Source of the DNA: a virus
Taxonomy: Duplodnaviria > Heunggongvirae > Uroviricota > Caudoviricetes
DNA length: 64,000 nt
Reading direction: 5' to 3' (one strand)
Virus record (IMG/VR): IMGVR_UViG_2744054962_000001
Each line of letters starts with the position of its first letter. Positions within the stretch are counted from its first letter, which is position 1. The position numbers and the translations under genes were made by a program. Of the stretch, positions 4,317 to 55,134 are shown one piece after another. The notes below the pieces were generated by a model, which was not told where the DNA came from, did no database searches, and saw nothing but the letters and a program-made list of their open reading frames with translations.

Positions 4317-4417
4317 AAAGACACCCACCAGAACAACTCCCTTCCGTTTCCACTTCCAAAAACTGCCACCAGTCGCTATCATCCGCTCATTGTGATAAGT
4401 AAGTAACTACCTACCAG

Positions 4418-5167
4418 GTGAGCCACATGAGCCAAATCTTTTTCGATACCATCGACAACAACCAGTACGACTTCATGACAGAGTGGAATACCGCTGTTAT
4501 GGACAAGTGGGTTGCTGAAAACATTGGTTTGTCGCGCTGTAAAGACGAGGCTGAACTCTTCGAGACGAAGTGGTTTGATTATCGCGACATGCATCCTCTC
4601 ATGGCCACCTGTCTTTTTACGGAGGCATACAAACGTCAGTACTCAAATATCATGCTGACGCACGGTCGCGAACACTTTGAAACAGCTCCGTTCACCACCG
4701 GGTTAAAACGTCTGCCTTATCAGGAGTTGTCGACTGCCAACAAAACGTCGCTATGGAAAGCACGCCAGTTTGCGGATCGCTATTGCTGCTCATACGACTA
4801 CTTTATCTCCACCGTTCTTTCCGCAGCTGCACGACGGCTGTGGGACAAGCTGCCGCGCCCACAGCATTTGTGGCAGCCAGAACTGATTGAGATATTTGAA
4901 GAGAAATTAGCCAGACGCGCAACAACCCGTCTGGATGACTCTCTGGTTAGCTTTAAGCATATGGGAGACATGCAGTTCAACCCGATTCAGGAAAGCTATT
5001 TTGAGTGGATTCTGGAGCGTTTGCGCACCATCCCTCGCAGTAAGCGCATACGCGCAATTTTCTCCGCTATCTGGCTAATGGAAATCGTTCCAGAGCGCCT
5101 TATTTCCGCCCACTTTCCAGAAGAACTGGAAGAAGCACGGCGGTTTATTGATCCCCTATCTAATTAA
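4418..5167 (+). CDS. Hypothetical protein
   Basis: 249-aa ORF upstream of helicase gene; no recognisable motif. Confidence 0.45.
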   Translation: MSHMSQIFFDTIDNNQYDFMTEWNTAVMDKWVAENIGLSRCKDEAELFETKWFDYRDMHPLMATCLFTEAYKRQYSNIMLTHGREHFETAPFTTGLKRLPYQELSTANKTSLWKARQFADRYCCSYDYFISTVLSAAARRLWDKLPRPQHLWQPELIEIFEEKLARRATTRLDDSLVSFKHMGDMQFNPIQESYFEWILERLRTIPRSKRIRAIFSAIWLMEIVPERLISAHFPEELEEARRFIDPLSN

Positions 5168-5177
5168 CTAATACTAG

Positions 5178-5191
5178 AAAACAATTTGTTT
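5178..5191 (+). promoter_or_regulatory. Conserved palindrome AAACAAnTTGTTT upstream of extended SD (family member)
   Basis: AAACAATTTGTTT 20 bp upstream of ATG 5211; same motif recurs at 17422, 32912, 45666, 55884, 56613. Confidence 0.4.
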
Positions 5192-5210
5192 AAAAAACAA
5201 AGGAAAGCAC

Positions 5211-6551
5211 ATGACCGAACTTTGCCATACAGGACGCGGGCTGTCCGAAGAGTTTGATGAAGATTTCCAGAACAGACTGACGGCATATTTTTGTCGTGAT
5301 CACGAGTTTCTTACTCGTGCGGGAGATCTGGTTGTGCCTAGCCAATTTGCCAATGCGGCCAATGCCATATTGGTTAATATGGTTTCGGGCTATTACCGTA
5401 TGTACAAGAGCGCGCCCTCTTCATCTGCAATTCTGGATATGCTTAAGCGTGCGAAACGCGATAAGACTATCCGTGAGGAACTATTCGCCGATGTTGTTGC
5501 TGCGTTTAAGCGCATCCTTGCAGAAAAATTGTCCGATACCTCGTACATGGTTGACCAGGTATCAACCTTCGCAAAAAGCGTAGCGTTTGATGATGCTCTG
5601 ATTAAGGCTGCTGAACTGAAAGAGAAAGGCGACTTTCAGGGGGCGATGGCAATCATGGCCAAGGTTCAGCAGATTGGATCGAACGAAGCGACCGGAATCT
5701 ATGACTACTACACCTCCGCAAGTGAGCGATTGAAAGCGCGTGAATATGAGGCTTCAGAGGAGTATGTACCAAACAGTATTACAACTGGACTCCCTCTTCT
5801 CGATAGGTTGCTGTACCAAAAAGGCTGGGCAAAGCGCGAAATGGTGCTCTTCATGGGGTTCGCTAAATCCGGTAAATCGACCGCAATGGGTGAGTTTTCC
5901 ATAAACGCAACGCTTGCTGGCTACAATGTTCTGTATCTCTCGCTGGAGGTTCACACCACCATTTTATCCGACCGTTTTGATGCAAGATTGTCGGAGACGG
6001 AAATGTCCAAGCTGGTGGAACGGCGCGATGAGGTTCATCGTAAGTTGGCAGAGTTGGGAGCCACGAAGGGGATTGGTAGTTTGTGGGTTGTTGAGCGTCC
6101 GTCAGGAAGTATGTCACCGGCAGACCTGGATCGTATGCTTAACAGCATGAAAGCCAATGGCATGGTGCCTGACATGGTTGTTGTCGACTACGCAGATTTG
6201 ATGCGTGCCAGTTATGACCTTCGTGATGATCGCGCCAACATTCGTAGTATCTACACCGATTTACGTGCTCTTTATGACAAGCATAACGTTGCTGGTATCA
6301 CGGCGTCGCAAACAAACCGTGAAGGTGGCGCGTCAGAAGTTGCCACAATGATGCACGCTGCCGACAACATCGAAAAAGTACGTATTGCTGACCTGGTAAT
6401 AACGATCAACAAAACCGAAGAAGAAGAAGCGAAAGGAGAGGCTCGTCTCTACTTTGCTGGTTCGCGTAACCAGCAGGGAGGGATCAGCATTCGCGTTAAA
6501 CAAAACCTCGAACAAATGCGCTTCATTGAGCGAATCTTAGACGTTACCTAA
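5211..6551 (+). CDS. Replicative DNA helicase (DnaB-like / RecA-fold)
   Basis: Walker A GFAKSGKST, Walker B-like VVVDYADLM, 446 aa, immediately upstream of primase. Confidence 0.7.
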   Translation: MTELCHTGRGLSEEFDEDFQNRLTAYFCRDHEFLTRAGDLVVPSQFANAANAILVNMVSGYYRMYKSAPSSSAILDMLKRAKRDKTIREELFADVVAAFKRILAEKLSDTSYMVDQVSTFAKSVAFDDALIKAAELKEKGDFQGAMAIMAKVQQIGSNEATGIYDYYTSASERLKAREYEASEEYVPNSITTGLPLLDRLLYQKGWAKREMVLFMGFAKSGKSTAMGEFSINATLAGYNVLYLSLEVHTTILSDRFDARLSETEMSKLVERRDEVHRKLAELGATKGIGSLWVVERPSGSMSPADLDRMLNSMKANGMVPDMVVVDYADLMRASYDLRDDRANIRSIYTDLRALYDKHNVAGITASQTNREGGASEVATMMHAADNIEKVRIADLVITINKTEEEEAKGEARLYFAGSRNQQGGISIRVKQNLEQMRFIERILDVT

Positions 6552-6557
6552 AAAATA

Positions 6558-6580
6558 AGCGTGGAGAACACCTCCACGCT
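6558..6580. terminator. Hairpin after helicase gene
   Basis: AGCGTGGAG aacac CTCCACGCT inverted repeat. Confidence 0.4.
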
Positions 6581-6632
6581 TGATTCATTGGTGAAACAAC
6601 TTTTCTTTTGCCAAACCACAAAAGAAAAACAC

Positions 6633-7814
6633 ATGAGCCTTTATGTTATATCAACATTTAGGTTGGTCACAATATTGCCTGTTAAAAGTGGAATTATCGT
6701 GAGCGAGCTGAAAGAGCTAATTACCGAATTAGATTTTGAACAATGGTTGGATACTGAAGGTATCGTTTATCGACGTGGAGGCGTGAGTACTCGCGGTCGT
6801 GAAGTGAATATCAAGGAGTGTCCGGTATGCGGCAGCTCCAACTGGAAGGTATATTTCAATCTGACCAGTGGCGTCGGTAAATGCTTCGCTGGTGATCATC
6901 CCGAAGAGATTCAGTTCAATAAGCTGGTCTTCCTCAAGCACTACAGCGGTAAATCACGACGACAGTTCGAGGAATATGTGCAGAACGCTCTTCTTTCCCA
7001 GGGGTGGGCACCAAAGAAAGAAGAGATAGTGCTTGCAAGCACAGTCGAGTTAGAGGGACCAGTTGCACTCCCTCGTCATTACGATCTTCCTATAGATGGC
7101 CATCTTCCAGACTATCTGGTTGAACGAAATATATCGCCTGAAATGGCAAAGTATTTTGACCTACGATACTGCGTCGAAGGCAAGCACGCTTATGTAGATC
7201 CGTATACAGATCAGGTTAAAGGACAGATTTTCGATATGCGAATACTGATACCGGTTTACGATCTGGATGGGGTAATGAAGACATTTCAAGGACGAGACAT
7301 TACCGGTACAGCAGAACGCCGCTACCTCTTCCCTATGCAGCTGCCGGCGTCGGGTAAGTTTCTCTACAACGGCCACAACGCAGTCGGGAAACAAACAGTC
7401 GTTGTGTGTGAAGGGGCATTTGACGTAATGGGCGTGAAGCGAGCCATCTTCGACGAAAAGACGCTGAGGGATTATGTAGAGCCAATTGGCACGTTCGGGA
7501 TGCACTTGTCCGGAAATATGAATGAGGACGCTGAAGATCAGTTGGGCGCGTTCCTGACGCTCAAGGCGCGTGGATTACGCAACGTCATCATGATGTGGGA
7601 TAGCGAGAAGCAAGCGATCCGCAACACCATGTCGGCGGCCAAACGCCTCACCAGCATCGGACTAAATGTCAAAGTGGCCTGTCTGGGCGAAGAAGGTCTC
7701 GACCCCGGCGACGCGACGCCAGAGCAGATCCTCAAAGCCTATTATCGTGCCAAGCCTTACTCCAAACAGCTGGAGTTAAAATGCAAAGTGCTCGGTATCA
7801 AGTCACTCGTGTAG
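6633..7814 (+). CDS. DNA primase (DnaG-like zinc-binding domain plus TOPRIM)
   Basis: CPVCGSS...CFAGDH zinc-ribbon-like motif and TOPRIM-like VVVCEGAFDVMG; ATG at 6633 preceded by AAAAGAAAAACAC motif; ORF track start 6561 overlaps the upstream hairpin. Confidence 0.65.
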   Translation: MSLYVISTFRLVTILPVKSGIIVSELKELITELDFEQWLDTEGIVYRRGGVSTRGREVNIKECPVCGSSNWKVYFNLTSGVGKCFAGDHPEEIQFNKLVFLKHYSGKSRRQFEEYVQNALLSQGWAPKKEEIVLASTVELEGPVALPRHYDLPIDGHLPDYLVERNISPEMAKYFDLRYCVEGKHAYVDPYTDQVKGQIFDMRILIPVYDLDGVMKTFQGRDITGTAERRYLFPMQLPASGKFLYNGHNAVGKQTVVVCEGAFDVMGVKRAIFDEKTLRDYVEPIGTFGMHLSGNMNEDAEDQLGAFLTLKARGLRNVIMMWDSEKQAIRNTMSAAKRLTSIGLNVKVACLGEEGLDPGDATPEQILKAYYRAKPYSKQLELKCKVLGIKSLV

Positions 7815-7815
7815 T

Positions 7816-8913
7816 TTAAGTTGTGGGAGACAGACGGTTCAGGACAAACGCTGCGATATTATTTAGTGCTATATTTAGCAAACTTGCATCATATGTTTGG
7901 TCGTTATCCTTAGGTTTAAAATTGCTGATACTGACTGTCTCACTGTGCTCATTTTCATAGAAACGTTTACTGCTTGAATCTAGGCGTTTGAGGACGTAAA
8001 TTTGCCCAAATTCAATCCACTCACCTTCACCATTGAGTCCGCTCCCTGTTTTGACTGAGATGAAGTACTTTGCCAGCTTGGTTGTAATGCAGTCTTCATT
8101 TTTTTCTATGCAAACCTTAATGCCGGCGGCTTTCAAACTACGATAAATGCTGTTTGGATATGCCCCACTATAGATTTCGCTGCTTTCAATGATAATGACG
8201 TCGTATTCTTCCTTTGGCTCAATAGATAAAGCTTCAGGCTCCAAATCATCCTTGTGAAAAATAAATCCTAAAAGACGCTCAAGTTCATCTGTTAATTTGA
8301 ACATGGGGTTCGCTTGGATCTCGCCAGCCCTGTCTTCGTAGACGAGCCCCGAGGTTATGAGCTTATTTAGCGATCTCAGAGCCATTCCACTTTTTTGTGA
8401 TGTGAGGCTAACTTGGGCTAATACAGTTGATTTATAGCCTTTTATTGGCGAGCTTGTTGTGATGTAAAGTTTGCGCGCATATTCAATATCAAAGCAGGTT
8501 AACCCACTCAGTATGTGGATAAAAAATAGTTTTTCATCGTCGTTAAGGCTGCTGCGGGCTAGGCTTACCGTCAAGCGAATGTAGTATTCTGTTTTCTTGT
8601 CTTCATCATCAAGCACGAGCTTTTTGACTAACGCCGAAAAGTGTTCTCTTGAGATATCGACCTCATCGTCGCAAATTTCACCAATGCCCATAATGTAACG
8701 GTTGAATCGATCACGACAAGTCGTCGCATTTATCTCTGAGAACAACGTGAACATTTTTTCCGCTGCCTCAATATGAGGTCCAACAAGCGGTATAGATTTG
8801 GCAAACGCCAAACCAGTTTCTTTCAATACCTTCCTGTGTTGCATCACGTTTTTGGACAACGTTGTCATAGACCTAAGCCTTGTGTGTTTAACGTATGAGT
8901 TAAGTGAAATCAT
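7816..8913 (-). CDS. Hypothetical protein, orphan minus-strand gene within replication cluster
   Basis: 365-aa ORF on opposite strand to both neighbours, lower GC than flanks; no recognisable catalytic motif. Confidence 0.5.
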   Translation of the reverse strand: MISLNSYVKHTRLRSMTTLSKNVMQHRKVLKETGLAFAKSIPLVGPHIEAAEKMFTLFSEINATTCRDRFNRYIMGIGEICDDEVDISREHFSALVKKLVLDDEDKKTEYYIRLTVSLARSSLNDDEKLFFIHILSGLTCFDIEYARKLYITTSSPIKGYKSTVLAQVSLTSQKSGMALRSLNKLITSGLVYEDRAGEIQANPMFKLTDELERLLGFIFHKDDLEPEALSIEPKEEYDVIIIESSEIYSGAYPNSIYRSLKAAGIKVCIEKNEDCITTKLAKYFISVKTGSGLNGEGEWIEFGQIYVLKRLDSSSKRFYENEHSETVSISNFKPKDNDQTYDASLLNIALNNIAAFVLNRLSPTT

Positions 8914-9051
8914 ATAGAAGTGACCTGACAGCTACAACTGGACAAGATTAAGAGCATTTTTTATAAACGAAAATAAACGCCTACATTGATAAGTAGATAC
9001 ATACTTATATTTCTGTAAGAATATGCTCGACGAAGGAATTGAGGAACCTTT

Positions 9052-17453: not shown

Positions 17454-19562
17454 ATGTCTAAAAAACGTTCCATCAAAGAGGTTCAGGACTTCCGTGACAG
17501 TGTAAAACGAGTAGTCGCTCTCCTTTCAGGTAAAAACATCCCTGTTGCAGAACGAGGGGACGACGCTTATGTACGCTATAACGATGATGGAGAGCCAATT
17601 CTCGTAAACATCCCATCAATCCCGGATAACGCAACACCGGCATTGATGAATGCTGTGCGCGGATTTCTCGATCATGAGGTTGCTCACATTTTGTTTACCG
17701 ATATTCGTGTGTCCAACAAAATGAGAGAAAAAGGACGCGTTCCTTCCTGGTCGCTATGGAATGCCTTAGAAGACGTGTTCATCGAGCGAAAAATGGGTCA
17801 GGTCTTTAACGGAACAAGACGTAATCTGATGGCAACTCAGCGCCTTATAATCGAAAAAGTCTTTAAACCAAAGGCTTCAGAGGCTATTGCTTATTGTGGC
17901 AAAGATCAGCGCGCGCTTTTTCTAAACTTCTTTCTCTGTCCGGTTGTAAGAGCCTGGGATGGCCAAGCACCGTTCGTAGATTTCATGGATGAATATTGGC
18001 CTGTCATTGAGAAACCAATTTCATTATTAAAAGAACATGGTATCGATGTGGCCGTGCGTAACATGTCTTGCACCGAGGATTGTGTAAAGGTGGCTGCGAC
18101 CATAGCTAAGATCCTCAAAGACACTGAAAGTGAAAGCAAAGGTAAGGAGTCAGCTCCGGGAAAAACTTCCGATCCTTCAGACGCTGACCAGACGGATGCC
18201 TCTGGAGAAAACAATGAAGATAACGAAGATCATGAGACACCCTCAGCGTTAGATAATCACAAATCTATCAAATCAGAATCACACAGTAAGCACAAACATG
18301 ATAATAATGACAGTGATGATTTAGATAATTCTGAATCATCAGAAACAATATTCGATGATACAGAAAATGATAAAGAGGTATCAGATTCTGATGCTTCTGA
18401 TAACGCGGCGTCAGAATCATTAACCGCTGACCACGAAAAAAGAAAAACGACAGAAGACGGCTCTTCAGATATTCCAACTCCGTCAAAAATGAGTCTGGAA
18501 GAGGCTTTAGAGGAGCTGGATAGCATAGAAGATGAAGTCGGAGGCATGACAGAAGATGCTCTATCCGAAACGATTAAAAGCGAGTTAACAGAAAGCTCGA
18601 AAAGCGAATACAGGCCATACAATCGCTCATACGACTTCATCGGCTCGATTGATCAGGCAGAAGCCCATATCAAACGGCTTATTAAAACATTCTCCGATAT
18701 TGATTTAGGAGGATGTCCAATCAGCCGCTATCGCATCGTTCCTGAAGGCAACCAGCTCTTCGACAAATATATTGAAAAGCATCTTTCGTCAGGTGTTTCG
18801 TCGACGCTGGCAAAAGACCTGGAGCGAGCAATAGCAAGCAGAAACAGAGTTCAGTTTATACCGGGCCAGCGTCGGGGGCGCATTCATGGTTCTAGTATCT
18901 ACAGATTAGCAATGAATGATGATCGCGTGTTTCGTAAAAAAGAAGAATCTAAAGCCGTTAACGCCTGTGTTCAACAAGTGATTGATTTATCAGGTTCAAT
19001 GAGGGGTATAACGATACAATTGGCTCTTGCAAGTGCATATACCATCGCCGATGCCCTTGATCGAATAAATGTTCCCAACATTATCACCGGCTTCACTACA
19101 TTTGGTAGTCATATGGCGGCAGGAGAACTTAAGGCTGTCAAGTATGAGTTCTCTCGCTTTGAATCTTTAATGCTACCTATCATCAAAAATTGGAATGAAA
19201 AGGTAAATTCTCGCGAAGTTCGCTCACGTATGGGGTGCGTAGGCTACACATTCCCACTTCTTAATAACGTGGATGGTGAAAGCATAGCCAGCCTTGCATC
19301 GTTATTTTCCGGTCGCATGGAGGACAGGAAGATCATGCTTGTTCTGAGCGATGGCGAGCCGTGGGCTGTTGGGAGAGGTTTTGACGCTCATTTGCGTTCG
19401 GTTGCGAAGCAAATTGAAACGCAGACTGACATTGATTTGATGGCAATTGGCATCATGACTGACGCACCGGAGAGATTTTACTCAAATCATGCCCTGGTAA
19501 CGAGCGTTGATAGTCTTGGTTCATCTGTAGTTACTGAACTATCTCGTATCATTTTAAAGTGA
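17454..19562 (+). CDS. CobT-like protein with acidic Ser/Asp-rich linker and C-terminal vWA domain
   Basis: MIDAS-like DLSGSM motif in C-terminal third; long acidic low-complexity middle; upstream of AAA+ CobS-like gene. Confidence 0.55.
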   Translation: MSKKRSIKEVQDFRDSVKRVVALLSGKNIPVAERGDDAYVRYNDDGEPILVNIPSIPDNATPALMNAVRGFLDHEVAHILFTDIRVSNKMREKGRVPSWSLWNALEDVFIERKMGQVFNGTRRNLMATQRLIIEKVFKPKASEAIAYCGKDQRALFLNFFLCPVVRAWDGQAPFVDFMDEYWPVIEKPISLLKEHGIDVAVRNMSCTEDCVKVAATIAKILKDTESESKGKESAPGKTSDPSDADQTDASGENNEDNEDHETPSALDNHKSIKSESHSKHKHDNNDSDDLDNSESSETIFDDTENDKEVSDSDASDNAASESLTADHEKRKTTEDGSSDIPTPSKMSLEEALEELDSIEDEVGGMTEDALSETIKSELTESSKSEYRPYNRSYDFIGSIDQAEAHIKRLIKTFSDIDLGGCPISRYRIVPEGNQLFDKYIEKHLSSGVSSTLAKDLERAIASRNRVQFIPGQRRGRIHGSSIYRLAMNDDRVFRKKEESKAVNACVQQVIDLSGSMRGITIQLALASAYTIADALDRINVPNIITGFTTFGSHMAAGELKAVKYEFSRFESLMLPIIKNWNEKVNSREVRSRMGCVGYTFPLLNNVDGESIASLASLFSGRMEDRKIMLVLSDGEPWAVGRGFDAHLRSVAKQIETQTDIDLMAIGIMTDAPERFYSNHALVTSVDSLGSSVVTELSRIILK

Positions 19563-19657
19563 ACAAAACAGCCTTAACGATAAGTAACCACTTACGATAG
19601 ATAATGATATATTTATATAAGAAGTTGAACGCTCATTAGAAAACAAAGGAAAAACGC

Positions 19658-20893
19658 ATGACTACTACTGCACTGCAAAATGAAAAAAATCCTTCTGATT
19701 ACCTTGTTTGCAAATGGTGCGGAAAATCATTTCACTATTTTAAGTCCCATGTAGCCAATGGTAATTGCGAGGGCATTCCTGAGTCAGTAAAAGATGCCGA
19801 TCCTGACACCGTACTGAAAATGTACACAACACAGTTTCCAGATGAGCCAACGCTATCGAAAAAGGCACTTGATGCAATTCAAGCTAAACGTGCCGAGCAA
19901 AAAAGCGAAATGACCAAATCATCTGGCGTGACCAGTAGCCCAGGCTACACAGGCACAGTTGAGTACAAGACAGATCTGGTCGCAGCTCACGAACTGCTAA
20001 ATGTAACGGTGAAAGAACTCGGAACAAAACGTGGGACGCCGCTCATGGTTAGCGTCAACGTCAATACGCCGTTTCCAGAGTTCGTTCCAGAAGTGAAGAA
20101 GGGCTACGTATATGGCGACTTCGAACTGATCAAAGACATTTTCATGATGCTTGAACTTGGCATACCTGGCTATTTGTGGGGTCATGCAGGAACAGGCAAA
20201 TCTTCATTGCCTACACAACTATGTGCTTTGCTCAATCGTCCGTTAATCCGTGCCCAACATACAGCATCAATGGAAGAGGCTCATGTTACGGGACAAATTC
20301 TGGCGCGTGATGGCTCTACGTATTTCGAGCCTGGCTTGCTTGCGCTCGCAATGAAGCATGGCTGGGTTTACCTCGCGGATGAATACGACTTTGCGTTTCC
20401 ACAAATTCTTGGCGTGTATCAGCCAGTGCTGGAAGGTGAAGCGTTAGTCATCAAAGAGGCAACTCCAGAATGGCGTCGCATTACTCCGCATGAACGGTTT
20501 GCTTTCATTGGCACTGGCAACACGAACGGATCTGGTGATGAAACCGGCTTGTACCAGGGTACAAACATCCAGAACGCCGCGAACTTTTCGCGTTTTGGCA
20601 TCGTTTCGAATGTGAAATACATGAGCAAAGAGGCAGAGATCAACATGTTGATAAATGCCGGTATCGTGGATGAATACGCAGAAAAGATGGTTAAGTTTGC
20701 CGGTATCGTTCGCGATGGATACGAAGAACACCTTATCAGTCAGCCAATTGGCCCTCGTGAACTTTTGTTGTCGGCCAAGATTGGAATGATGCGAGGCGAC
20801 TTTGTGACAGGTATTGAGCGTTCTTTCATTAACAAACTCCCTTCAGCTTCTGCACAAGCGGCTCGTGAAGTTGTTCAAAAAATATTTGGTTGA
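19658..20893 (+). CDS. CobS-like AAA+ ATPase (MoxR-type)
   Basis: Walker A GHAGTGKSS, Walker B-like VYLADEYD, 411 aa. Confidence 0.6.
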   Translation: MTTTALQNEKNPSDYLVCKWCGKSFHYFKSHVANGNCEGIPESVKDADPDTVLKMYTTQFPDEPTLSKKALDAIQAKRAEQKSEMTKSSGVTSSPGYTGTVEYKTDLVAAHELLNVTVKELGTKRGTPLMVSVNVNTPFPEFVPEVKKGYVYGDFELIKDIFMMLELGIPGYLWGHAGTGKSSLPTQLCALLNRPLIRAQHTASMEEAHVTGQILARDGSTYFEPGLLALAMKHGWVYLADEYDFAFPQILGVYQPVLEGEALVIKEATPEWRRITPHERFAFIGTGNTNGSGDETGLYQGTNIQNAANFSRFGIVSNVKYMSKEAEINMLINAGIVDEYAEKMVKFAGIVRDGYEEHLISQPIGPRELLLSAKIGMMRGDFVTGIERSFINKLPSASAQAAREVVQKIFG

Positions 20894-21099
20894 TCGTGCG
20901 TAAAGGATGTTTCGGCTCTCTTATCGCTGCTTCTGAAACTGGTAAGGCTTGTCTGGTATGTCCAGACAAGCCCGATTGTCACCAATCAGCAAAAGAAGTT
21001 GCGATTTCGATGTATGGGAAGTTCGTAGGCTTCCCCAATGACAAAATCAAAAAAACCATAAAGGTAAAAACACATGAAAGCACTGATGGTTCGAACTGA
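20890..21099 (+). CDS. Small Cys-rich hypothetical protein
   Basis: CLVCPDKPDC motif; overlaps both neighbours. Confidence 0.3.
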   Translation: MIVRKGCFGSLIAASETGKACLVCPDKPDCHQSAKEVAISMYGKFVGFPNDKIKKTIKVKTHESTDGSN

Positions 21100-24000
21100 C
21101 TTCTCACTTGGGGAGTCGGCTCTAAAAGCAGAAAACGCGGTGAAGATTGCCAGAGAAGCTGGCTACACCGCTGTAATTTCAGCAGATAGCATGAATATTG
21201 CGAGTGTTATTCCACTACAACGTGCCGCTGGTGACGACATGGCGGTTATTTGTGGTGTGAAACTAAATATCGTTGATGATCCTACATACGAGCACCGGGC
21301 TAAACTTGCTAAAGAATCTATGAGATGTATGGAATCATTAGAGCGGGGACGTAACTACTCGTTTACCGCTCTAATTAAAAATGAGCAAGGATATCGCGAC
21401 ATCTGCGAACTAATGACGGTGGCCAACACACGAGAACAGTTCTACTTTGTACCGCGTCTCTCGCTCGAACAGTTGGTTTCTACATATGCCAAAGGCAACA
21501 TCATCCTGCTCACTTCCGACATCGGTAGCGTGTTCCAACGCAACGATTTTGCAAAAATCATAAGCTCACTGATTACAGCGGGCGGGAAAGACAACTTCTA
21601 TAGCGTGGTTTATCCGCACCCTACCCCATTCTACGACCAGATTAACGTCCGAGCGATGAAAGTAGCCAGCGCACTGAAAATAGAGCCAGTAGCGTTCTAT
21701 CCCGCTTATTACGAATCGATCGACGATGCAGACATTAAAGACATTGCGCACATGGTTACGAACAACATAAAAATCGACCAGCCGCATCGTCTGCGTATCC
21801 CCCACCAGCGAGATAACGCCATCAATGGTCGTCGCCATCTCCTTGAGGCGCTTAAAGCCTTCTCCGTTCGCATGGATGTGCCGGTAACAGCTGCAATGGC
21901 CTCAACAACGCAGGACTCCATTATCGATGCCTGCACATGGCGCTGGCATGAATTGCCACCAGCACTGCCCAAGATGGCAGACGACGAACCTGCAACGCTG
22001 ATGAAACTGGCTGTTGCAGGGCTGCGTAAACGTCTTACCACAAAAGAGTTTGGATACACACCACCTGCTTCTGAGAACAGGGTTTATGTTGAGCGGCTAA
22101 AGTACGAAATGAACACGCTGACTCGCCTGGGATTTTGTGGTTACTTCCTGATGGTACGCGATCTGATGAATCACAGCCGTGAAACTGGCATTCCTGTCGG
22201 GCCTGGTCGTGGTTCCTCTGCCGGTTCTCTGGTGGCGTGGTGCATAGGCATAACCAACGTCGACCCAATCCGTCACGGTCTTCTGTTTGAGCGTTTCATC
22301 AACCCTGAGCGTCTCGACTTGCCGGATGCGGACTTGGACTTCAGCCAGGCACGTCGCCATGAGGTGATCGAGTATCTGAATGAACGCTACGGCGAAGATT
22401 ACGTTGCAGGCATTCCGAACTTCACCTACCTGGGCGCAGCCTCTGCACTACGTGACACCGCTCGTATTTATGGTGTGGAGTCCGCAGATATGGCGGTATC
22501 AAAAGAACTGAAGAACGTCGAGGATGATAGCCTTCCATTGGAAGAGCTGCGCGAACAACTGGCAAGTCTCGACAAATACGCAACAAAATATCCTGATGCA
22601 TTCAATGCAGCCTGCAAGTTACAAAGCCTTATGCGTGGCTTTGGTAGACATGCGGCAGGGATGATTGTAGCAGGTGTTCCTCTGACAGAACGTACACCGG
22701 TTGAGCGCCGTGGTGACGCGCGTTGTATCGCATTTGACAAGCGTTACTGCGAGGCTATGGGCCTAATTAAGCTGGACGTGCTTGGCCTGGCAACTCTCGA
22801 TTTGCTCGATAGTGCAAAACGCTACATAAAAGAGAACACAGGTGAAGATATCAATCTTGATGCCATTTCTCTTGAAGATCGCAAGGTGCTGGATGGTTTT
22901 GCTGCAGGGTATACACAGGGCGTATTCCAGCTGGAGTCCGGCCCCATGCGCAAGCTGCTTAAAGATCTAGGCGGTGGCATTGAGCCAATGAGCTTTAAAA
23001 CCGTTGTCGCCACGACCGCACTCTTCCGACCTGGCCCGATCCAATCCGGCATGTTGGACGACTATGTCTCCGTGGCCAAAGGCTTCATGGCTCCACATTC
23101 AATTCATCCGCGTCTTGAGGAAGTCACCCGGGAGACTAATGGTGTTTTGCTCTATCAGGAACAAATCATGCAAAGTTCCCGAGTACTTGCCGGGTTCTCT
23201 ATGGCCGAAGCAGACGCTCTGCGTTCCGCTATCGGTAAAAAGAACATGGATAAGATGAAAGCGATCGGCAGCGATTTTGTAGAACGAGCACAAGCAGGCT
23301 GGGTGACACTGTCACTCAAAAATGGAGGCACTGTAGAGGTTCACAAACACGCAAAACTGGATTGCTCAGACGGTAAGCGTAGAAGCTACAGCGAGGCTAT
23401 TAGTGACGGCATAGACTACGTGGAGATCGTCTCTGAACAAGAAGGTCTCAGTAAGGAAAAAGCCCAAGAAATATGGGACGCCTTTGAGAAGTTCGGTGGA
23501 TATGCCTTCAATAAATCACACTCCGTTGCTTATTCTTTAATCAGTTATCAGTCTATGTGGTTAAAGACACATTACCCTGCTGAGTTCTTCGCTGCTGCGC
23601 TCACCATTCTGGGCGAGGATAAGCACCAGGGGCTGGTTAAGGATGCGCTGACCTATGGCATTCGCGTATTGCCACCAGACGTTAACGTGTCATCTAACCG
23701 AATCGAGATCCGCACGCTTGAAGATGGCAGCCAGGTGCTGTATGCGCCATTCTCTGCTGTGAAAGGCTGTTCTGAAAATGGTTGTCAGGCAATTATGCGT
23801 GCGCGTGAGAAAGTTGGTGGCAAATTCGAGTCAGTGGCACAATTCGATGAAGCGGTCGAGAAGCGTGCATGTAACAGTCGTGTACGCGAGTCGCTTCATA
23901 AAGTAGGGGCTTTTGCGTCAATTGAGCCAGGCAGTCTGCCAGCAACTGATCCTGAACGACTGCGCGACCAGGCTGAGCTGATGGGCAATCTCATCATTGA

Positions 24001-24580: not shown

Positions 24581-24587
24581 TAAAGAA

Positions 24588-26963: not shown

Positions 26964-27080
26964 TTTTTGATAGATAATAAGTAAGTACTGATCTATCATT
27001 TAACAGCTCGAAAGAGCCACGAATGAACGAAAGCCCAACGCGCATAGCGCCATCGGCCAAATCACAACAAGGAGAAACAC

Positions 27081-31726: not shown

Positions 31727-31752
31727 AAGGCGTCCACAGGACGCCTTTTTTA
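31727..31752 (+). terminator. Intrinsic terminator (GGCGTCC family)
   Basis: GGCGTCC aca GGACGCC followed by TTTTTT. Confidence 0.6.
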
Positions 31753-31814
31753 TCTCTTGAAAATATATAAGTGCTTACTTATTATTTTCACATAACAACC
31801 ACATAGGAAAACAC

Positions 31815-32015
31815 ATGATCAAAATCTATCTATTGGCAGTAGCCACAGGCCTTTCAGTGGCTCTCATCTACGGTTTACTGGTTCCGTCGCTGATTTCTAC
31901 CAAGAGTGATTTAGCCGTCATGTTTGGAGTTATCGTTGGTTTTGGTGCTCCTGTAATCGGTCTTATTGCTGGTCGTAAGTTTATCAACTCATTAATCAAA
32001 GCAAAGGGGAAATAA
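31815..32015 (+). CDS. Small two-helix membrane protein
   Basis: 66 aa, two hydrophobic helices; directly upstream of SPFH lipoprotein. Confidence 0.45.
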   Translation: MIKIYLLAVATGLSVALIYGLLVPSLISTKSDLAVMFGVIVGFGAPVIGLIAGRKFINSLIKAKGK

Positions 32016-33366: not shown

Positions 33367-33421
33367 TCGCCTATTCATAACTAACAAAATAAGTAAACAC
33401 TAACCACAAAAGGAAAAACAC

Positions 33422-33697
33422 ATGAGAGTTTTAGTTCGAATCGTTACCAGCACTGTCTATGACGTGTTTCCACTTTTTATGATCAAAGTCGATGGCCTTA
33501 ACGACGAAGAAACTGACGCGCTGATCCAGCGTACTCTTGTTGAATATACAGGTCATGACGCTGATTCAGTGATGGTTGATGATGATGGTGTTTGTTGGCA
33601 TAACGGCAACTGTTGGTACGTAGAAGAGACTCAACAAATCAGTGATGAAGATGCCGAACATCTTGAGCGTATTTTAAGCATCAGCACTTTTGAGTGA
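33422..33697 (+). CDS. Hypothetical acidic protein
   Basis: 91-aa ORF preceded by AAAGGAAAAACACATG motif. Confidence 0.45.
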   Translation: MRVLVRIVTSTVYDVFPLFMIKVDGLNDEETDALIQRTLVEYTGHDADSVMVDDDGVCWHNGNCWYVEETQQISDEDAEHLERILSISTFE

Positions 33698-33736
33698 GTT
33701 TACAGTAAAATTTATATAAGTTGGTATCTACCTATC

Positions 33737-33916
33737 ATGAAGATTTTTATTGAATACTTGTTACTCATCGTTTCAATAGCTTTTGTCATCGACTGCATTT
33801 TCACTGGTGTCATTCGTAAAGTCTTTTCCCCGGTGCACGACGTAGTCATAAACGCTTTGGCTATCGTGCTCGTATTTAATTCAGCATTTGATGTAATCAA
33901 AGAGGTGGCAGCATGA
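33737..33916 (+). CDS. Small membrane protein (59 aa)
   Basis: + strand ORF with two hydrophobic helices, stop overlapping next start (ATGA); preferred over the minus-strand ORF 33712-33900. Confidence 0.3.
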   Translation: MKIFIEYLLLIVSIAFVIDCIFTGVIRKVFSPVHDVVINALAIVLVFNSAFDVIKEVAA

Positions 33917-36556: not shown

Positions 36557-36589
36557 TTTCAGACCAGTAACCGCAACGGCTAGAGGCGA

Positions 36590-37391: not shown

Positions 37392-37465
37392 ACGTAATCT
37401 CAGGGTTTAACCGAGGCATAAAATATGGTGCATTAGAAAGACACTGAGGGCTTTTAGGATTAATA

Positions 37466-37907: not shown

Positions 37908-37938
37908 AAAGCACCCCATACGAGGTGCTCCTGAAGAA

Positions 37939-50603: not shown

Positions 50604-50664
50604 AAATTGTTCGCCTCTTCGACATTGCGACAATAAAACTCTCAAAATGGGTTAAGGATAAAAA

Positions 50665-51084: not shown

Positions 51085-51093
51085 GGAGTTCTG

Positions 51094-51648
51094 ATGACAA
51101 CGATTGTTGCAGGCATCGATATCGAGTCTACGGGACTGGATTTCCTTGCTGGTCATAAAATTATTGAAATCGCAATTACCCGCTATGAACTGGAGACACA
51201 GACAATGGTTGATAGTTTTGTAATGCGGTTCAACCCGCGTCGCAGTATCGATCCGAAAGCGCAAGCGGTACACGGCATCAGTCTTGAAGATTTAGCCGCC
51301 GAGCCGTTACTAGCCGATCACGCTTCATCTGTCGCTTCGTATCTCTCTTCTTCCGATATTTGGATAGCCCACAACGGCGAAGCGTTCGATATTCCGTTTA
51401 TTAGGCATGAGCTGAAAAGTTACGGTTTTTCGCTTCCAGACATCCCATTGATTGACACTCTATTTTCCCTGTGGGCCACAGAAGACGGTAAACGTCCCCG
51501 CCTTGAAGAGTTGGCCTTCTCTCTTGGCTTTATGTACGATCATACTAAAGCACATAGTGCCTTATATGACACAAACTTAATGATGCAATGCTTCTTTAAG
51601 GCACGTAATAAGTACGGATTTTTTAAATTACCCTCTGAAATTGTGTAA
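51094..51648 (+). CDS. DnaQ-like 3-prime to 5-prime exonuclease (DEDDh)
   Basis: Exo I GIDIESTG, Exo II HNGEAFD, Exo III HSALYDT. Confidence 0.7.
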   Translation: MTTIVAGIDIESTGLDFLAGHKIIEIAITRYELETQTMVDSFVMRFNPRRSIDPKAQAVHGISLEDLAAEPLLADHASSVASYLSSSDIWIAHNGEAFDIPFIRHELKSYGFSLPDIPLIDTLFSLWATEDGKRPRLEELAFSLGFMYDHTKAHSALYDTNLMMQCFFKARNKYGFFKLPSEIV

Positions 51649-51652
51649 AACA

Positions 51653-51691
51653 AAAGCCTGCTTTAAAGAGAGTTTAAAGCAGGCTTTCTTT
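51653..51691 (+). terminator. Long hairpin terminator
   Basis: AAAGCCTGCTTTAAA gagag TTTAAAGCAGGCTTT followed by CTTTT. Confidence 0.6.
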
Positions 51692-51808
51692 TAAAGAACA
51701 GCCGCCTTTCAATCATTTCCTGCCTGTATTTAATACTTTTCCGCCTGATAGGTTTAGTCAAAATGTAGCTATCGAAACGCAAATGTAACCAAGCAGAAGG
51801 AGACTTAC

Positions 51809-52618
51809 ATGAGTTCGGTTGAAAATGTAATGGCAAATGATGATCTGGACGAGCTGACAGCCATGTTGCAATCACTTGATGAGCCAGTAAAAAAAGCCGC
51901 ACAGGTTGAAAATACTGATGATATTGACGATCTGCTGCTCGGCCTCGATGCTGGCGTAGCCATGAGTTCTGATGATGTTGCCGAAGAACTGTTCAATGAA
52001 GAAAAAGCAGGTGATTTCAGCTCTGCTTTAAATGAGTTGGAGTTAGCGCATGAGCCTATAAACGTAATTAACGCTGAAAGTGTTGAATCTGCCGAAAACG
52101 AGCCAGAACAATTGGGATTGATTGAGGTTGAAGAGTGTGTTGATGTTAATGATGAATTAAAAGTTCAACAGTCAAATGATAGCAACACAAATAAAAAAGC
52201 GCGTACTGCAAGAGGTCCTCGTTTTACTTTAAGTGATAAAGATGATTCGTTTTTCAATAAAGCAGGCTTAGAAACAGATATTTTCTTAGACGCTTACGAA
52301 AACGCGCCTGTCAAAGCAAAGGATAAGATATTAAACCTTCTTAATTGGTTTAGCGGAGGTCCAGATATTAGTGTTTACACGGTAATTTCCATGAGACACC
52401 TTCTCACAGAAAAGAAGGCTACAAGTAATAGTATTAAGATTGCTTTAATGAGCAATCCAGAAAAACCGTATCCGCTTAACACTGCGTCAACTCAGGCTGG
52501 GCAAATGATGGCTGTATTTCCAGCGACAGGAATTGCCGTTAGAGACGGTGGAAATCTAACATTGAACGAAGAATCACCGATCGTTAAGAAGTTTGTAGCG
52601 GAGTACACTATTGGATGA
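51809..52618 (+). CDS. Hypothetical protein with strongly acidic N-terminal half
   Basis: First 110 aa dominated by Asp/Glu (DDLDELT, DDIDDLLLGLD, DDVAEELFNEE); 269 aa. Confidence 0.45.
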   Translation: MSSVENVMANDDLDELTAMLQSLDEPVKKAAQVENTDDIDDLLLGLDAGVAMSSDDVAEELFNEEKAGDFSSALNELELAHEPINVINAESVESAENEPEQLGLIEVEECVDVNDELKVQQSNDSNTNKKARTARGPRFTLSDKDDSFFNKAGLETDIFLDAYENAPVKAKDKILNLLNWFSGGPDISVYTVISMRHLLTEKKATSNSIKIALMSNPEKPYPLNTASTQAGQMMAVFPATGIAVRDGGNLTLNEESPIVKKFVAEYTIG

Positions 52619-52693
52619 CGTCCCCCTACTGAAAATAAAGCCCATAGAGAGCTTTATAGTGCTGGGTAAGCCAATCACATATCCAGCACCACA

Positions 52694-52740
52694 AAAACGC
52701 GCCAGAGAGCTTCTCGTTTGCATTTCTGGCGCGTTTTATT
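52694..52740 (+). terminator. Hairpin terminator
   Basis: AAAACGCGCCAGA ... TCTGGCGCGTTTT. Confidence 0.5.
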
Positions 52741-52801
52741 TGATTGTCAGACATAAAATCAAATGCAAAAATAGGTAATCACTTACCTATCGAGAAAGAA
52801 G

Positions 52802-53395
52802 ATGATTGCAGCCGAAAAAATCAAACAGCGAAAGCGCGACAACTCTCTTCGTGACCTCTGGAGAACACCTGACTGGCTGTTTTCTGCCATTCAACGTTAT
52901 CTTGGAGTGACATTTGATGTTGACGTTGCCTGCAACAAGGACAATGCGAAGCTGCCTAATTTCATAGGCGTTGAGCGTGATGCTTTGAAATCTGAATGGG
53001 GAAAGCCAGGTACAATTGCCTTCCTCAATCCACCCTACTCCAAAATCTCCCCCTGGATTGATGCGGCTATACGTGAGCAGGCTCGCGGAGTTACAACAGT
53101 GATGCTAATTCCTCAATCCCTCGATACAAAGTGGTATGAGCGTGCAACAGAGTGTGCGAATGAGACGATTATTCTGTCTGGTGGCCGCGTAGCGTTTGTC
53201 GAGCCTGACGTCAATTTGGGTCAGGTAGAAGTAAACATCAACCCCGGTGGCAGTATGCTCGTTGTTTTTCGAGGATTCTGTCAGGACGCTGGGCACTCTA
53301 TAAGCAAGATCCCTTTGGACGTCATGAAAAGTCTGGGAGGGTATGATCCTGCGAATGTGATCAGGAAAAAAAGACCATCAAAGAAGGCTGCTTAG
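52802..53395 (+). CDS. Orphan DNA N6-adenine methyltransferase (phage Dam-like)
   Basis: Catalytic NPPY motif (FLNPPYSK); 197 aa with no adjacent restriction gene. Confidence 0.65.
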   Translation: MIAAEKIKQRKRDNSLRDLWRTPDWLFSAIQRYLGVTFDVDVACNKDNAKLPNFIGVERDALKSEWGKPGTIAFLNPPYSKISPWIDAAIREQARGVTTVMLIPQSLDTKWYERATECANETIILSGGRVAFVEPDVNLGQVEVNINPGGSMLVVFRGFCQDAGHSISKIPLDVMKSLGGYDPANVIRKKRPSKKAA

Positions 53396-53416
53396 TTTGT
53401 TCTGGCGTCTGTAATT

Positions 53417-53480
53417 AGCCTGCTTCTGTATATATAAATAACTACATATTAATTATTAATATACGGAAGCAGGCTGTTTT
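53417..53480. terminator. Long AT-rich hairpin, second copy of the 4255-4316 family
   Basis: AGCCTGCTTCTGTATAT ... ATATACGGAAGCAGGCT with one G-U wobble, followed by GTTTT. Confidence 0.5.
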
Positions 53481-53581
53481 ATATCAGAGACTCCCAGACC
53501 TGAACACCACTACAGAATCCACTAGAACCCCTTCCCAGACGCTTTAAAATCGATTTTATGAACCACTTTAAGGAAACCAAC

Positions 53582-53812
53582 ATGTCATATCCGACTAATG
53601 TCGTTGCGCTCGTAGAGAGCGATTTTCTGGCCCAGGCTCGTGAAATGATGAAAGATCGTGAGCAGGCTTTCAACTTGTACGAATGGGCAATTAAGTGCTT
53701 GCATCTTGGGGAGCATCGCGAACTTGTTGAACAGCTTTTAGGTGAGTTGATCAACGAGGTGTTTGCCTTGAATGTTCAACTACATGGTCGAAAAAATAAT
53801 CAATCGAAATGA
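53582..53812 (+). CDS. Hypothetical protein
   Basis: ATG at 53582 preceded by AAGGAAACCAAC; 76 aa. Confidence 0.4.
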   Translation: MSYPTNVVALVESDFLAQAREMMKDREQAFNLYEWAIKCLHLGEHRELVEQLLGELINEVFALNVQLHGRKNNQSK

Positions 53813-54395
53813 TAGATAAGTACAAACTATTCATAAAGTGAATTGTAAGTGCTAAGATCTGATAGTTTCCAGTCGTAGACTGGAGACTCGACCTGATGGG
53901 TGGGGGTAAGCGTCACTGGCGTCAGGTTTAAAAAAGCTCACTACCAGCGTAGAACCGGTGCCGTTTAGGTGTCGGGGAAGGGGGAACCAAAGTGAGCAGA
54001 GACAAGGGTCACTTTATGATTGTCGAGTCTGGGGTGTTTCGAGAGGTTGAATCCAGTACTCCCCTTCATAAAGTGTGGGAAGATCTCGGTTCTGGGGTGC
54101 TGTCATCCATAACTTCCCAAGTCTAAGCTGGCAGTAGACTTAGACCATAGCTTTTCAGGTTATGAAACGACCAGGTTGGTGAGGAATTTTATACTCACCT
54201 CCCTGGGAGAGTATTACCTGAAAAGACAACCTCTCACTTCGTTCGAGGTGAACTTCACTCACTTCGTTCGTTCAGTTCAGGTTTATAAAAAACCTGTTCT
54301 GGGAAGTAATTTGTTTATTTTAATAATTATTAACACGCACGCGTGTGCGCACGCGCGAGGAAAAAATCGGCGCGGCGCTTGATTCAGGAGTTTAT
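53813..54395. other. ORF-poor structured region (candidate ncRNA or regulatory region) ending in a 25-bp alternating purine-pyrimidine tract
   Basis: No ORF of 60 aa or more on + strand across about 360 bp; multiple local hairpins; direct repeat TCACTTCGTTCG x2; Z-DNA-prone ACACGCACGCGTGTGCGCACGCGCG at 54333-54357. Confidence 0.3.
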
Positions 54396-54989
54396 ATGAC
54401 GACGAAGACACCAGCCCGATCGCAAGCAAAAACTCGCAAAAAAGCCAAAAACAAAAATTCTCCCCGCACCAATCCAACAACGCCTGTCGTAGAGTTCAAT
54501 CCCCAGCTCAAAACCGTGAAAATCTTTAGTGATGGCTCTTGCCTTAAAAATCCGGGTGGCCCGGGCGGTTACGGTATCGTTCTCCAGTATCGTGGTGAGG
54601 AACGCGAGTTCTCAGATGGTTTTCATAGCACCACCAATAACCGCATGGAGATGATGGGCGCACTTATCGGGCTGGAGCGTTTGAAATATCCATGCAACGT
54701 TATTTTGTACTCTGATAGCCAGTATCTGAAAAACGGCATGACACAGTGGATGAAATGGTGGAAACGTAATGGATGGATGACTTCTGATAAAAAACCGGTA
54801 AAGAATGTTGATCTGTGGAAACGTCTGGATGAGGCCGCAAGTCGACATAATGTTCGCTGGAAGTGGGTTAAAGGTCACGCCGGGCATCGTGAAAATGAAA
54901 TATGTGATCGACTCGCGAAGATCGCAGCTTTTTCAGCAGCAGATATGCCTCACAAGAAAGATATTGGTTTTGTTTATAACAAGTGGTAA
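54396..54989 (+). CDS. rnhA: Ribonuclease HI with basic N-terminal extension
   Basis: [49 protein letters not shown] match RNase HI; SD CAGGAG upstream of ATG 54396. Confidence 0.85.
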
Positions 54990-55134
54990 GTAAGTGTTTA
55001 CCTATCATTTTAAATCATGTATCTTATCAGCGTCAGGATGACAATGTGTCGGTAAGACACAGTTCCAGGATGGAACGAGAAAGGCGGCTGGCAATCGCCA
55101 GCCGCAACTCTTTCTGACACTGGATGGAGTCCAC

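Follow-up and report, generated by a model that had tools for sequence, protein, structure and literature searches.

Dispersed intergenic palindromes of an SSU5-type phage-plasmid as probable operators of an element-encoded regulator

The 64,000-nt stretch of DNA analysed here (the window) comes from a tailed-phage record, IMGVR_UViG_2744054962_000001, and carries a short palindrome that recurs between its genes. The question raised by this arrangement is what the palindromes do and which protein reads them. Our analysis leads to the conclusion that they are probably operators: sites in duplex DNA bound by a dimeric regulator that the phage-plasmid itself encodes, most likely its prophage repressor; the operator reading taken alone is, if anything, a little more probable. 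As the binder we tentatively put forward a 128-aa XRE-family helix-turn-helix protein encoded at 16505-16891 on the minus strand, an assignment that we regard as a serious possibility. By megablast, positions 4000-24000 of the window align with Escherichia phage Cyrano (pLF82, OV696614) over 86% of the query, with 97.8% identity; identity falls to 82% for Salmonella phage SSU5 and to ~76% for Klebsiella phage-plasmids, and more than 1,300 enterobacterial plasmids match likewise. These matches, together with a gene content that includes ParA, a DnaB-like helicase, a primase, an ATP-dependent ligase, an integrase and a CobT-like protein, indicate that the window represents 64 kb of an E. coli phage-plasmid of SSU5 type.

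A preliminary description of this DNA had listed twelve copies of the palindrome, written as ATA(A/G)GTA-N-TAC(T/C)TAT, and had placed them always in intergenic DNA upstream of operons. All twelve are present within a few bases of the positions given. The literal pattern with its 1-bp gap has zero matches in the window, and with a gap of 2 bp the one perfect copy is that at 47937-47952, which corresponds to the copy reported as perfect near 47933. Allowing at most one mismatch, the pattern TARGTR-NN-YACYTA yields 19 matches, which make up 16 separate sites; the expectation from dinucleotide shuffles of the window is 0.93, and no shuffle contained more than 3 matches. When genes were called greedily from open reading frames and the intergenic DNA alone (8.8 kb, 40% GC) was shuffled with its dinucleotides preserved, 15 intergenic sites stood against 0.33 expected, and the coding DNA (54.7 kb) held none. 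The same shuffle gave 24 intergenic sites against 0.51 in Cyrano and 22 against 0.37 in SSU5. Motif statistics, which had been suggested as a check, thus confirm the enrichment, and intergenic placement holds for nearly all copies; one core, at 54987-55004, overlaps the stop codon of a gene.

The element is longer than first described. It consists of an 18-bp core with weaker flanks that extend to 26-32 bp, and the full palindrome is made up of aaaTGA-TAGGTAAGT followed directly by ACTTACCTA-TCAttt. A palindromic weight matrix (26 nt, 21 bits) was refined on 77 sites from three genomes, with a single register for all sites, and has the consensus a-t/a-a/g-A-TA-R-GTAAGT to the left of the centre and ACTTAC-Y-TA-T to the right. 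The hexamers are spaced by gaps of 2 and 6 only, a consequence of the 4-bp phasing of the sequence (TAAG TAAG TA), and paired 14-mers 4 bp apart amount to one 18-mer. Some copies, AAAATGATAAGTAAGTATTTACCTATCATTTT among them, reach 32 bp, and many of those in the Klebsiella plasmid pJN2-26 are the perfect 18-mer TAGGTAAGTACTTACCTA. At thresholds of 9, 12 and 15 bits, a matrix scan of the window returned 18, 16 and 13 sites, against 1.1, 0.32 and 0.08 in the null; these counts are descriptive, the matrix being trained on pattern-found sites, and the unbiased figures are those of the pattern and the intergenic shuffles. Sites beyond the original list are those at 16921-16938, 33390-33407, 33717-33734, 47797-47814 and, doubtfully, 53435-53452. 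The scan found zero sites in 1-4390, the toxin-antitoxin and parA region, and in 55005-64000.

Two features of the sequence may be recorded beside this description. The string TAAGTAAGTAA contains stop codons in all three frames, as the palindrome does on both strands, so that the stop codons of the motif would alone exclude it from coding DNA; at several junctions the stop codon of the upstream gene lies within the motif (2021-2023 of Cyrano for the terminase gene TerL; 54987-54989 of the window). The doubtful site at 53435-53452 (15.5 bits) is the AT-rich interior of a long inverted repeat, cctgcttctgta ... tacggaagcagg, at 53420-53475. The repeat, which SSU5 and Klebsiella have kept, probably represents a different element, and the site within it may not belong to the family.

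The sites are also conserved in number and position across related elements. Cyrano carries 26 across its whole 108 kb genome, SSU5 carries 26 in its first 100 kb and pJN2-26 about as many, both at the junctions used in Cyrano. In Cyrano, in addition to those at replication and metabolism operons, copies lie between TerL and portal, within the 3'-terminal part of the portal gene, between the major capsid protein (MCP) and immunoglobulin (Ig)-like genes, between tail completion and tail genes and between M and L, with further copies between J and tail fibre, between fibre and holin, and before a parB-like operon. Orthologous spacers hold sites in genomes that are 76-82% identical. In the 103-kb viral contig IMGVR_UViG_2713896750_000003, whose proteins are 30-55% identical to those of Cyrano, the identical 18-mer stands at the TerL-portal junction and at neighbouring junctions. 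Eleven sites of the window have orthologues in SSU5 as well as in pJN2-26; when these are aligned ungapped on the palindrome centre with 32-nt flanks, all three genomes agree at 78% of the 18 core columns, compared with 34% of the left and 30% of the right flank. Substitutions within sites retain the consensus, as in AACTATCTA, GCTTACCTA and ACTTACCTA at the TerL-portal junction. Together these comparisons indicate that the sites are conserved islands in diverged spacers and are under selection.

Is the binder a protein of the host or of the element? The 32-nt consensus, compared with 5,426 complete E. coli genomes (E<=10), gave 840 matches in 218 genomes, all of them on plasmids of ~105-190 kb, most of ~110 kb, and zero on chromosomes, in a search that short or degenerate chromosomal sites would escape. 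This restriction to plasmids argues for an element-encoded binder, and a host transcription-factor regulon was rejected on the same finding. The half-site resembles the boxes of NarL, RcsB and EvgA, from which it differs in arrangement or inner bases. In lysogens of Cyrano, the transcribed genes comprise toxin-antitoxin pairs, genes downstream of parA, CYRAN_43, CYRAN_45 and others (PMC9928086). Most of the genes transcribed in lysogens have no strong copy upstream; those near a copy are CYRAN_45, CYRAN_81 (~180 nt downstream) and CYRAN_109 (downstream of the 96691 site).

Palindromes of a related look occur in podovirus-like metagenome contigs of 41% GC (L011, L082, L079, L071 and L056), where long (AGTA)n(TACT)n repeats such as AGTAAGTAAGTACTTACTTACTT, and also (AGTA)3(TACT)3, precede terS and terL (in L011, examples at 2373-2390 and 4460-4493). 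A binder shared with these contigs was rejected, as they have no meaningful protein match to Cyrano at E below 10, and we treat the likeness as coincidence or convergence.

The earlier proposal of a candidate operator or promoter class is supported by the intergenic placement, by conservation within spacers and by overlap or abutment with sigma-70-like promoters that point at downstream genes. With a scanner built on the sigma-70 consensus and blind to the motif, 4 of the 8 plus-strand promoter-like sites in 26-45 kb embed a palindrome. Forward promoter-like overlap was found for 5 of 16 sites in the window, 9 of 26 in Cyrano, 10 of 27 in SSU5 and 8 of 26 in Klebsiella, against 1.5-2.5% of random positions, a 15-20-fold excess. 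Relative to the predicted start, palindrome centres fall at -19 to -22 in 16 of 32 cases and at 0 to +2 in 7 of 32. A weight-matrix promoter scan of Cyrano placed 12 of 26 sites above the 95th percentile of random 140-nt windows in the forward direction and 3 of 26 in the reverse. Between operator and promoter, this geometry favours operator, because sites lie in 16-18-bp promoter spacers, over start sites, in leaders (some copies 2-22 nt from the start codon) and on the promoter of the repressor gene. We infer from these positions that binding would repress rather than activate.

An alternative is that the palindrome is the site of a lytic-phase activator which marks phage promoters, as Lpa does in P1, and which, bound at the repressor promoter, would shut the repressor off. 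P1 Lpa acts at late promoters through an inverted repeat centred near -22 beside a -10 box, with no -35. Consistent with such a role, many centres lie near -20 as in that geometry, a -10-like box such as TGTAAGAAT or TATAAGAT, paired with a poor -35, comes after several copies, copies stand before early-type and structural or lysis genes alike, and SSU5, which has no XRE repressor, propagates lytically while all its copies are intact. However, the promoter partners that match best combine a good -35 hexamer with a spacing of 16-18 bp (TTGAAA-17-TATTAT, TTGATA-17-TAACAT), and a protein within such a spacer usually blocks polymerase. The positions moreover span -36 to +2 and run into leaders, with no single activating distance, and the copies that lie 2-22 nt from a start codon are too close to it for a downstream -10 and leader. 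No candidate activator was found, although no search aimed at Lpa homologues was made. On balance we consider an activator site unlikely.

A second alternative is that the family's two ParB-N-domain proteins (CYRAN_119 and CYRAN_120) use the copies for loading or silencing, in the manner of KorB or N15 SopB, or else that the copies are mainly roadblocks to elongation like those of phage L5. Both ParB_N proteins are conserved in the family, in each of Cyrano, SSU5 and Klebsiella the parB-like operon is preceded by a copy at a distance of 7-20 nt, and some copies occupy late-operon spacers that are too tiny for a promoter. The parB-adjacent copy is, however, one of 26, so that its position proves little; the parB-like genes lie beyond the window, and association with promoter-like sites at -20 and +2 is not expected of clamp-loading sites. 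As for roadblocks, the L5 stoperators are 13-bp, asymmetric and orientation-dependent, whereas the palindrome is symmetric. Neither form of this explanation is probable in our estimation, and both stand below the activator.

Whether the palindrome acts as DNA or as folded RNA can be judged from how its arms vary. At the nine symmetric pairs, Watson-Crick combinations occur as often as expected for independently varying arms. The R/Y position, for example, shows 33 of them where 29.7 would be expected, besides 14 A.C and 11 G.T combinations. Both arms are held near the same half-site and not toward mutual complementarity. Because the arms vary independently, the palindrome points to a site in duplex DNA that a symmetric dimer recognises, and not to an RNA hairpin. 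An RNA hairpin or DNA cruciform, serving as a processing site, translational operator or intergenic terminator, would suit the copies in short spacers near ribosome-binding sites, those beside terminator hairpins, and the stop codons that TAAGTAAGTAA carries in two or three frames on both strands. It is nonetheless very improbable, as A.C mismatches are frequent, the arms are conserved toward one half-site sequence, and one copy stands on the minus-strand repressor promoter at or upstream of the start site; a structured RNA or intrinsic terminator was rejected for the absence of compensatory changes at all nine pairs. Last, although intergenic DNA is 40% GC and the half-site AT-rich, a chance product of AT-rich composition, which the preliminary description had named as the explanation to fear, is practically negligible, because the excess of 15 sites over 0.33 arises against shuffles of the intergenic DNA itself, and orthologous positions keep their sites across genera.

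Which protein, then, would bind? The 128-aa protein matches CYRAN_45, annotated "putative repressor", and its gene sits between the integrase gene (15407-16510, plus strand) and the cobT-like gene. A promoter-like TTTACA-16-TAATAT at 16938-16965 on the minus strand, assigned to the repressor gene, abuts the palindrome at 16921-16938 (GGTAAGTGCTTACC, 13.5 bits). In the 250-nt switch spacer, the most conserved block among repressor clades of 56-100% identity is CTTTACA-N16-TAATAT-C-GGTAAG(C/T)ACTTACC, which resolves as TTTACA-16-TAATAT-c-GGTAAGnACTTACC, the repressor promoter followed by the palindrome at about -5 to +9; this copy is kept in all Enterobacteriaceae clades of the repressor over the same range of identity. 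In lysogens, the CYRAN_45 transcript stands at 10x the local background (PMC9928086).

The family assignment of the protein draws on profiles and on predicted structure. Family hits are weak (Pfam HTH_19; PHROG 8, "transcriptional regulator"), and no match was found among PDB sequences or NCBIfam. The AlphaFold model is all-helical, with a predicted local distance difference test score (pLDDT) of 76, and its N-terminal domain resembles the XRE/Cro-type proteins Stl, C.BclI, C.AhdI, HigA and 434 Cro. Target-normalised TM-scores (template-modelling scores) are 0.7-0.8 for small structures, with weak Foldseek E-values of 5e-3 to 6e-2, and 434 Cro, C.AhdI and C.BclI align to the model at a root-mean-square deviation of 1.5-3 A over ~65 residues. 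Homologues found by word-based search are all at least 55% identical; they come from E. coli, E. fergusonii, Salmonella, Cronobacter, Citrobacter, Enterobacter, Klebsiella and Raoultella, are named XRE-family regulators and, where contigs are long enough, lie on contigs of ~100-116 kb. A profile search reaches a wider family of ~130-aa proteins, with 1,645 cluster representatives at E<=1e-3, of which the nearest clade was viewed in its genomic context.

Another element-encoded protein, the FljA-like CYRAN_114/SSU5_121, was considered as the binder and set aside, because its family consists of post-transcriptional flagellin repressors and no site was seen by its gene. The protein is conserved in the phage-plasmid family (Cyrano 100780-101301, minus strand; SSU5_121; pJN226_0046) and matches Pfam Flag1_repress, "repressor of phase-1 flagellin", at E=1e-80; host flagellin could be modulated by it.

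SSU5 lacks both the repressor and the integrase genes and yet keeps all of its palindromes. Enterobacter plasmids are 98-99% identical to SSU5 up to the tRNA gene and then break off, and none of 822 plasmids spans the SSU5 junction in one piece. In NZ_CP134668 (22396-28099), 5.8 kb lie between the tRNA gene and cobT, where the SSU5 counterpart (NC_018843) is 42596-42761; the block contains phoH, gp49, grxA, yafO, the integrase gene, a 128-aa "transcriptional regulator" and a small open reading frame. Because near-identical plasmids carry this block, sequence comparison indicates that SSU5 is a recent deletion derivative. The argument that the repressor is not the binder because SSU5 lacks it was therefore dropped, plasmids 99% identical in the flanks carrying the integrase and repressor genes. 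Loss of the block fits the isolation of SSU5 as a lytic phage and would explain its lytic behaviour.

The nearest remote homologue of the repressor, P0057, is 50% identical, differs in its recognition helix (NANNLSNIKTGR versus NANNLSLIKSGK) and belongs to an SSU5-like lineage found on ~110-kb contigs, IMGVR_UViG_3300013669_000001 being an example. Three sites within 20 kb in this lineage read TAAGTAG-TTGC-CTACTTA, TTGGTAG-GTCA-CTACCTA and TAGGTAG-GTAA-ATACCTA. Position 7 of the half-site is thus G in the P0057 lineage (TARGTAG), compared with A in E. coli, Salmonella and Klebsiella (TARGTAA; 78% in the matrix), a shift in the direction expected if operator and repressor had changed together.

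Taken together, we infer the following scheme, with the XRE protein as the tentative binder. A repressor dimer would bind the 18-bp core, and the 26-32-bp extent would allow two dimers. Bound in a 16-18-bp spacer (centre ~-20), at the start (~+2) or in the leader (~+15), the dimer would exclude or block RNA polymerase, and at leader and intra-operon copies it would block elongation. Its targets would be nearly all lytic units: in the window the genes for replication, recombination, nucleotide metabolism and methylase, and elsewhere in the genome those for head, tail and lysis. Since the bound protein would block polymerase at each promoter, one protein could silence ~26 promoters during plasmid carriage, and the copy at about -5 to +9 of the repressor's own promoter would provide negative autoregulation.

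Several observations weigh against this scheme. At the repressor promoter the copy matches weakly (13.5 bits), and in the P0057 lineage the weak copy near the repressor gene lies ~115 nt upstream of the ATG and not at the start site. The covariation of operator and repressor involves only three orthologous sites, and any other diverged protein fits it equally. A recent deletion explains why SSU5 keeps its copies without the repressor; another binder predicts the same equally well. As to promoters, reverse promoter-like overlaps number 6 in the window, about as many as forward ones there (5 in Cyrano, 3 in SSU5 and 2 in Klebsiella), and about two-thirds of sites have no strict promoter-like partner. 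Because tTGAtA and TAtCAt, the outer arms of the palindrome, look like -35 and -10 boxes and feed the promoter matches, motif and promoter are not independent. Several copies leave no space for a promoter, such as those in the 26-nt TerL-portal spacer and between the MCP and Ig-like genes just upstream of a terminator, and the Cyrano copies at 2021, 5448, 22449 and 26662 have no promoter-like partner; such promoter-less late copies would need a roadblock or other role.

How such a repressor might be relieved is suggested by the neighbouring integrase gene, which converges on the repressor gene with a 6-nt overlap. A sequence of LexA-box form, TACTGTTTACTTATACAGTA at 15361-15380, lies 27 nt upstream of the integrase gene and overlaps the -10 and start site of a promoter-like TTGATC-17-TAATAT (15333-15361). 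The pattern CTGT-N8-ACAG occurs once in the window against 0.98 expected, and because this count equals chance the case for LexA rests on position and on the 20-bp match. Ciprofloxacin induces Cyrano (PMC9928086). Read-through from an SOS-induced integrase promoter, antisense to the repressor gene, could be one induction route. An extended form of the scheme would see a genome-wide silencing grid, in which one XRE repressor insulates nearly every cassette, the promoter-less late junctions by roadblock or looping, and is released by SOS-controlled convergent transcription from the LexA-boxed promoter at 15333-15380 instead of by repressor cleavage; we regard this as speculative and hardly more than an outside chance. 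If it were true, TARGTAA and TARGTAG half-sites would define immunity groups among clinical SSU5-type plasmids.

The individual copies in the window illustrate the range of positions. The first core, TAAGTAAGTAACTACCTA at 4396-4413 (23.3 bits), ends 14 nt before the ATG at 4427 of the first gene of the helicase/primase operon, within the leader at about +7 to +24 from a weak promoter-like TTCCAA-17-TATCAT. Core TAAGTAGATACATACTTA at 8990-9007 (22.3 bits) lies upstream of the gene at 9052-9846 and the DNA ligase operon, with the -10-like TGTAAGAAT 8 nt past it. At 12572-12589, TAAGTATTTACTTACTTA (22.2 bits) shares bases with the -35 of TTTACT-17-TAAGAT and precedes the tRNA-Asn/Thr/Ser cluster (13339-13586), and TAAGTAACCACTTACGAT at 19581-19598 (13.9 bits), followed by the -10-like box TATAAGAAG, lies between the cobT-like gene (17454-19562) and the genes for an AAA ATPase and DNA polymerase III alpha.

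Some of the strongest copies sit within promoter-like spacers on the plus strand. The core at 26978-26995 (27.7 bits) lies inside TAGATA-17-TATCAT (26971-26999), upstream of genes for a gp32-like single-stranded DNA-binding protein (SSB), an exonuclease and a RecA-like protein. At 31764-31781 (26.1 bits) the core fills the spacer of TTGAAA-17-TATTAT (31757-31785, 10/12), after a terminator at 31727-31747 and before the gene at 31815. A weak copy, TAAGTAAACACTAACCAC at 33390-33407 (10.9 bits), stands 15 nt before the gene at 33422, and the core at 33717-33734 (18.3 bits) lies inside TTTATA-16-TATCAT (33711-33738), 2 nt before an ATG. Core TAGGTATTCACTTACCTA at 38537-38554 (24.9 bits) is followed by a -10-like CATAAT upstream of the SbcD/SbcC-like nuclease operon. 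Upstream of nrdA and nrdB, TAGGTAAGTGCTTATCTA at 43222-43239 (27.6 bits) occupies the spacer of TTGATA-17-TAACAT (43218-43246), and a terminator-like hairpin at 43247-43268 starts directly past the -10. A start ~7 nt past this -10 would fall in the 5' arm of the hairpin, which would then stop upstream read-through yet spare transcripts from the nrdA promoter. A palindrome-then-hairpin layout is also seen at Cyrano 5448, 15530 and 22449.

The thyX spacer holds two copies, a weaker one at its upstream end (47797-47814, 12.6 bits) and a core with the perfect ATAAGTAATTACTTAT at 47934-47951 (22.2 bits), which ends ~17 nt before the GTG start at 47968. Core TAGGTAATCACTTACCTA at 52772-52789 (26.5 bits) begins at the -10 end of a plus-strand TTGTCA-17-AAAAAT with TG (52744-52772) and spans the start site; the adenine methyltransferase gene (52802) follows. 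The degenerate copy TAGATAAGTACAAACTAT at 53813-53830 (18.7 bits) has orthologues in SSU5 and Klebsiella that match better. At 54987-55004, the core that overlaps the stop codon of an RNase H-like gene is TAAGTAAGTGTTTACCTA (26.3 bits), and its SSU5 and Klebsiella counterparts lie within the 32-bp palindrome AAAATGATAAGTAAGTATTTACCTATCATTTT.

The AAACAA palindrome family of the preliminary description, scanned as TTGTT-N-AACAA, has by this crude pattern 4 matches in the window (5186, 17429, 54970 and 55891) against 1.6 expected. Those at 5186, 17429 and 55891 lie 11-25 nt before the next start codon; that at 54970 abuts the palindrome at 54987-55004, with ~150 nt to the next start.

Beyond these sites, nearly all genes of the window are on the plus strand, and annotation transferred from Cyrano includes DNA polymerase III alpha, the gp32-like SSB, RecA-like, SbcCD-like, NrdAB, ThyX and Dam-like proteins. 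A type I restriction-modification system at 58819-63804 on the minus strand (HsdR, 1038 aa; HsdS, 445 aa; the end of HsdM) stands in place of Cyrano's DUF4942/Ea22-like region. It is accessory defence cargo and contains no copy of the palindrome.

SSU5-type phage-plasmids are frequent in clinical and animal Enterobacteriaceae, with relatives in Salmonella, Klebsiella, Enterobacter, Citrobacter, Cronobacter and Yersinia, and near-consensus copies of the motif occur in 218 of the 5,426 complete E. coli genomes. In the literature searched we found no description of the motif, nor of silencing, a lysis-lysogeny circuit or a switch to lytic growth in SSU5-type elements. A defined operator, a map of ~26 promoters and a named candidate repressor make this switch testable, and with the motif, annotation of lytic transcription units could be extended to the whole family.

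The arrangement proposed here can be compared with several known systems. The C1 network of P1 is similar in that it belongs to an enterobacterial plasmid prophage with a ~100-kb genome, in which one repressor controls scattered operators that overlap promoters, as one would here, and in that the repressor gene itself is under a copy; the ~26 dispersed sites per genome with promoter-like overlap share this trait. However, P1 C1 operators are asymmetric 17-mers, ATTGCTCTAATAAATTT, whereas the present site is an 18-26-bp palindrome of unrelated sequence that also occurs in the late structural region, and the candidate binder is a 128-aa XRE-type protein and not a C1 relative, although no systematic search for C1 homologues was made elsewhere in the genome. 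The gp71 system of the temperate phage L5 likewise has ~25-30 copies of one short motif in short spacers of early and late regions, some without an evident promoter, which may suggest an elongation block. In contrast to L5, the sites here are symmetric and many fall exactly in promoter spacers or at start sites.

With respect to protein and site type, the closest likeness is to the Cro/CI-type XRE repressors (434, P22) and the controller (C) proteins of restriction-modification systems, whose fold matches that predicted for the candidate and which have palindromic 14-18-bp operators and an autoregulated repressor promoter; the symmetric 21-bit matrix with independently varying arms agrees with such operators. 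Unlike lambdoid operators, which are clustered at the immunity region (three plus three), the sites here are dispersed genome-wide, and the candidate has an extra helical C-terminal domain with no S24 peptidase domain. P1 Lpa sites share an inverted repeat ~20 bp upstream of the start beside a -10, before many operons of a plasmid prophage, and differ from the present set in its many good -35 boxes, its positions from -36 to +15 and its copy on the repressor promoter. RK2 KorB, one global repressor, uses 12 OB palindromes over its plasmid, N15 has dispersed SopB sites, and ParB-N-domain proteins are present here too; the sequence differs, and association with promoter spacers and start sites is tighter here than for KorB class II/III sites.

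By analogy, then, the architecture would be that of the P1 C1 network or the L5 stoperators, and the protein and site type those of the Cro/CI-XRE class. Because site sequence, symmetry and protein all differ, the set belongs to neither the P1 nor the L5 family.

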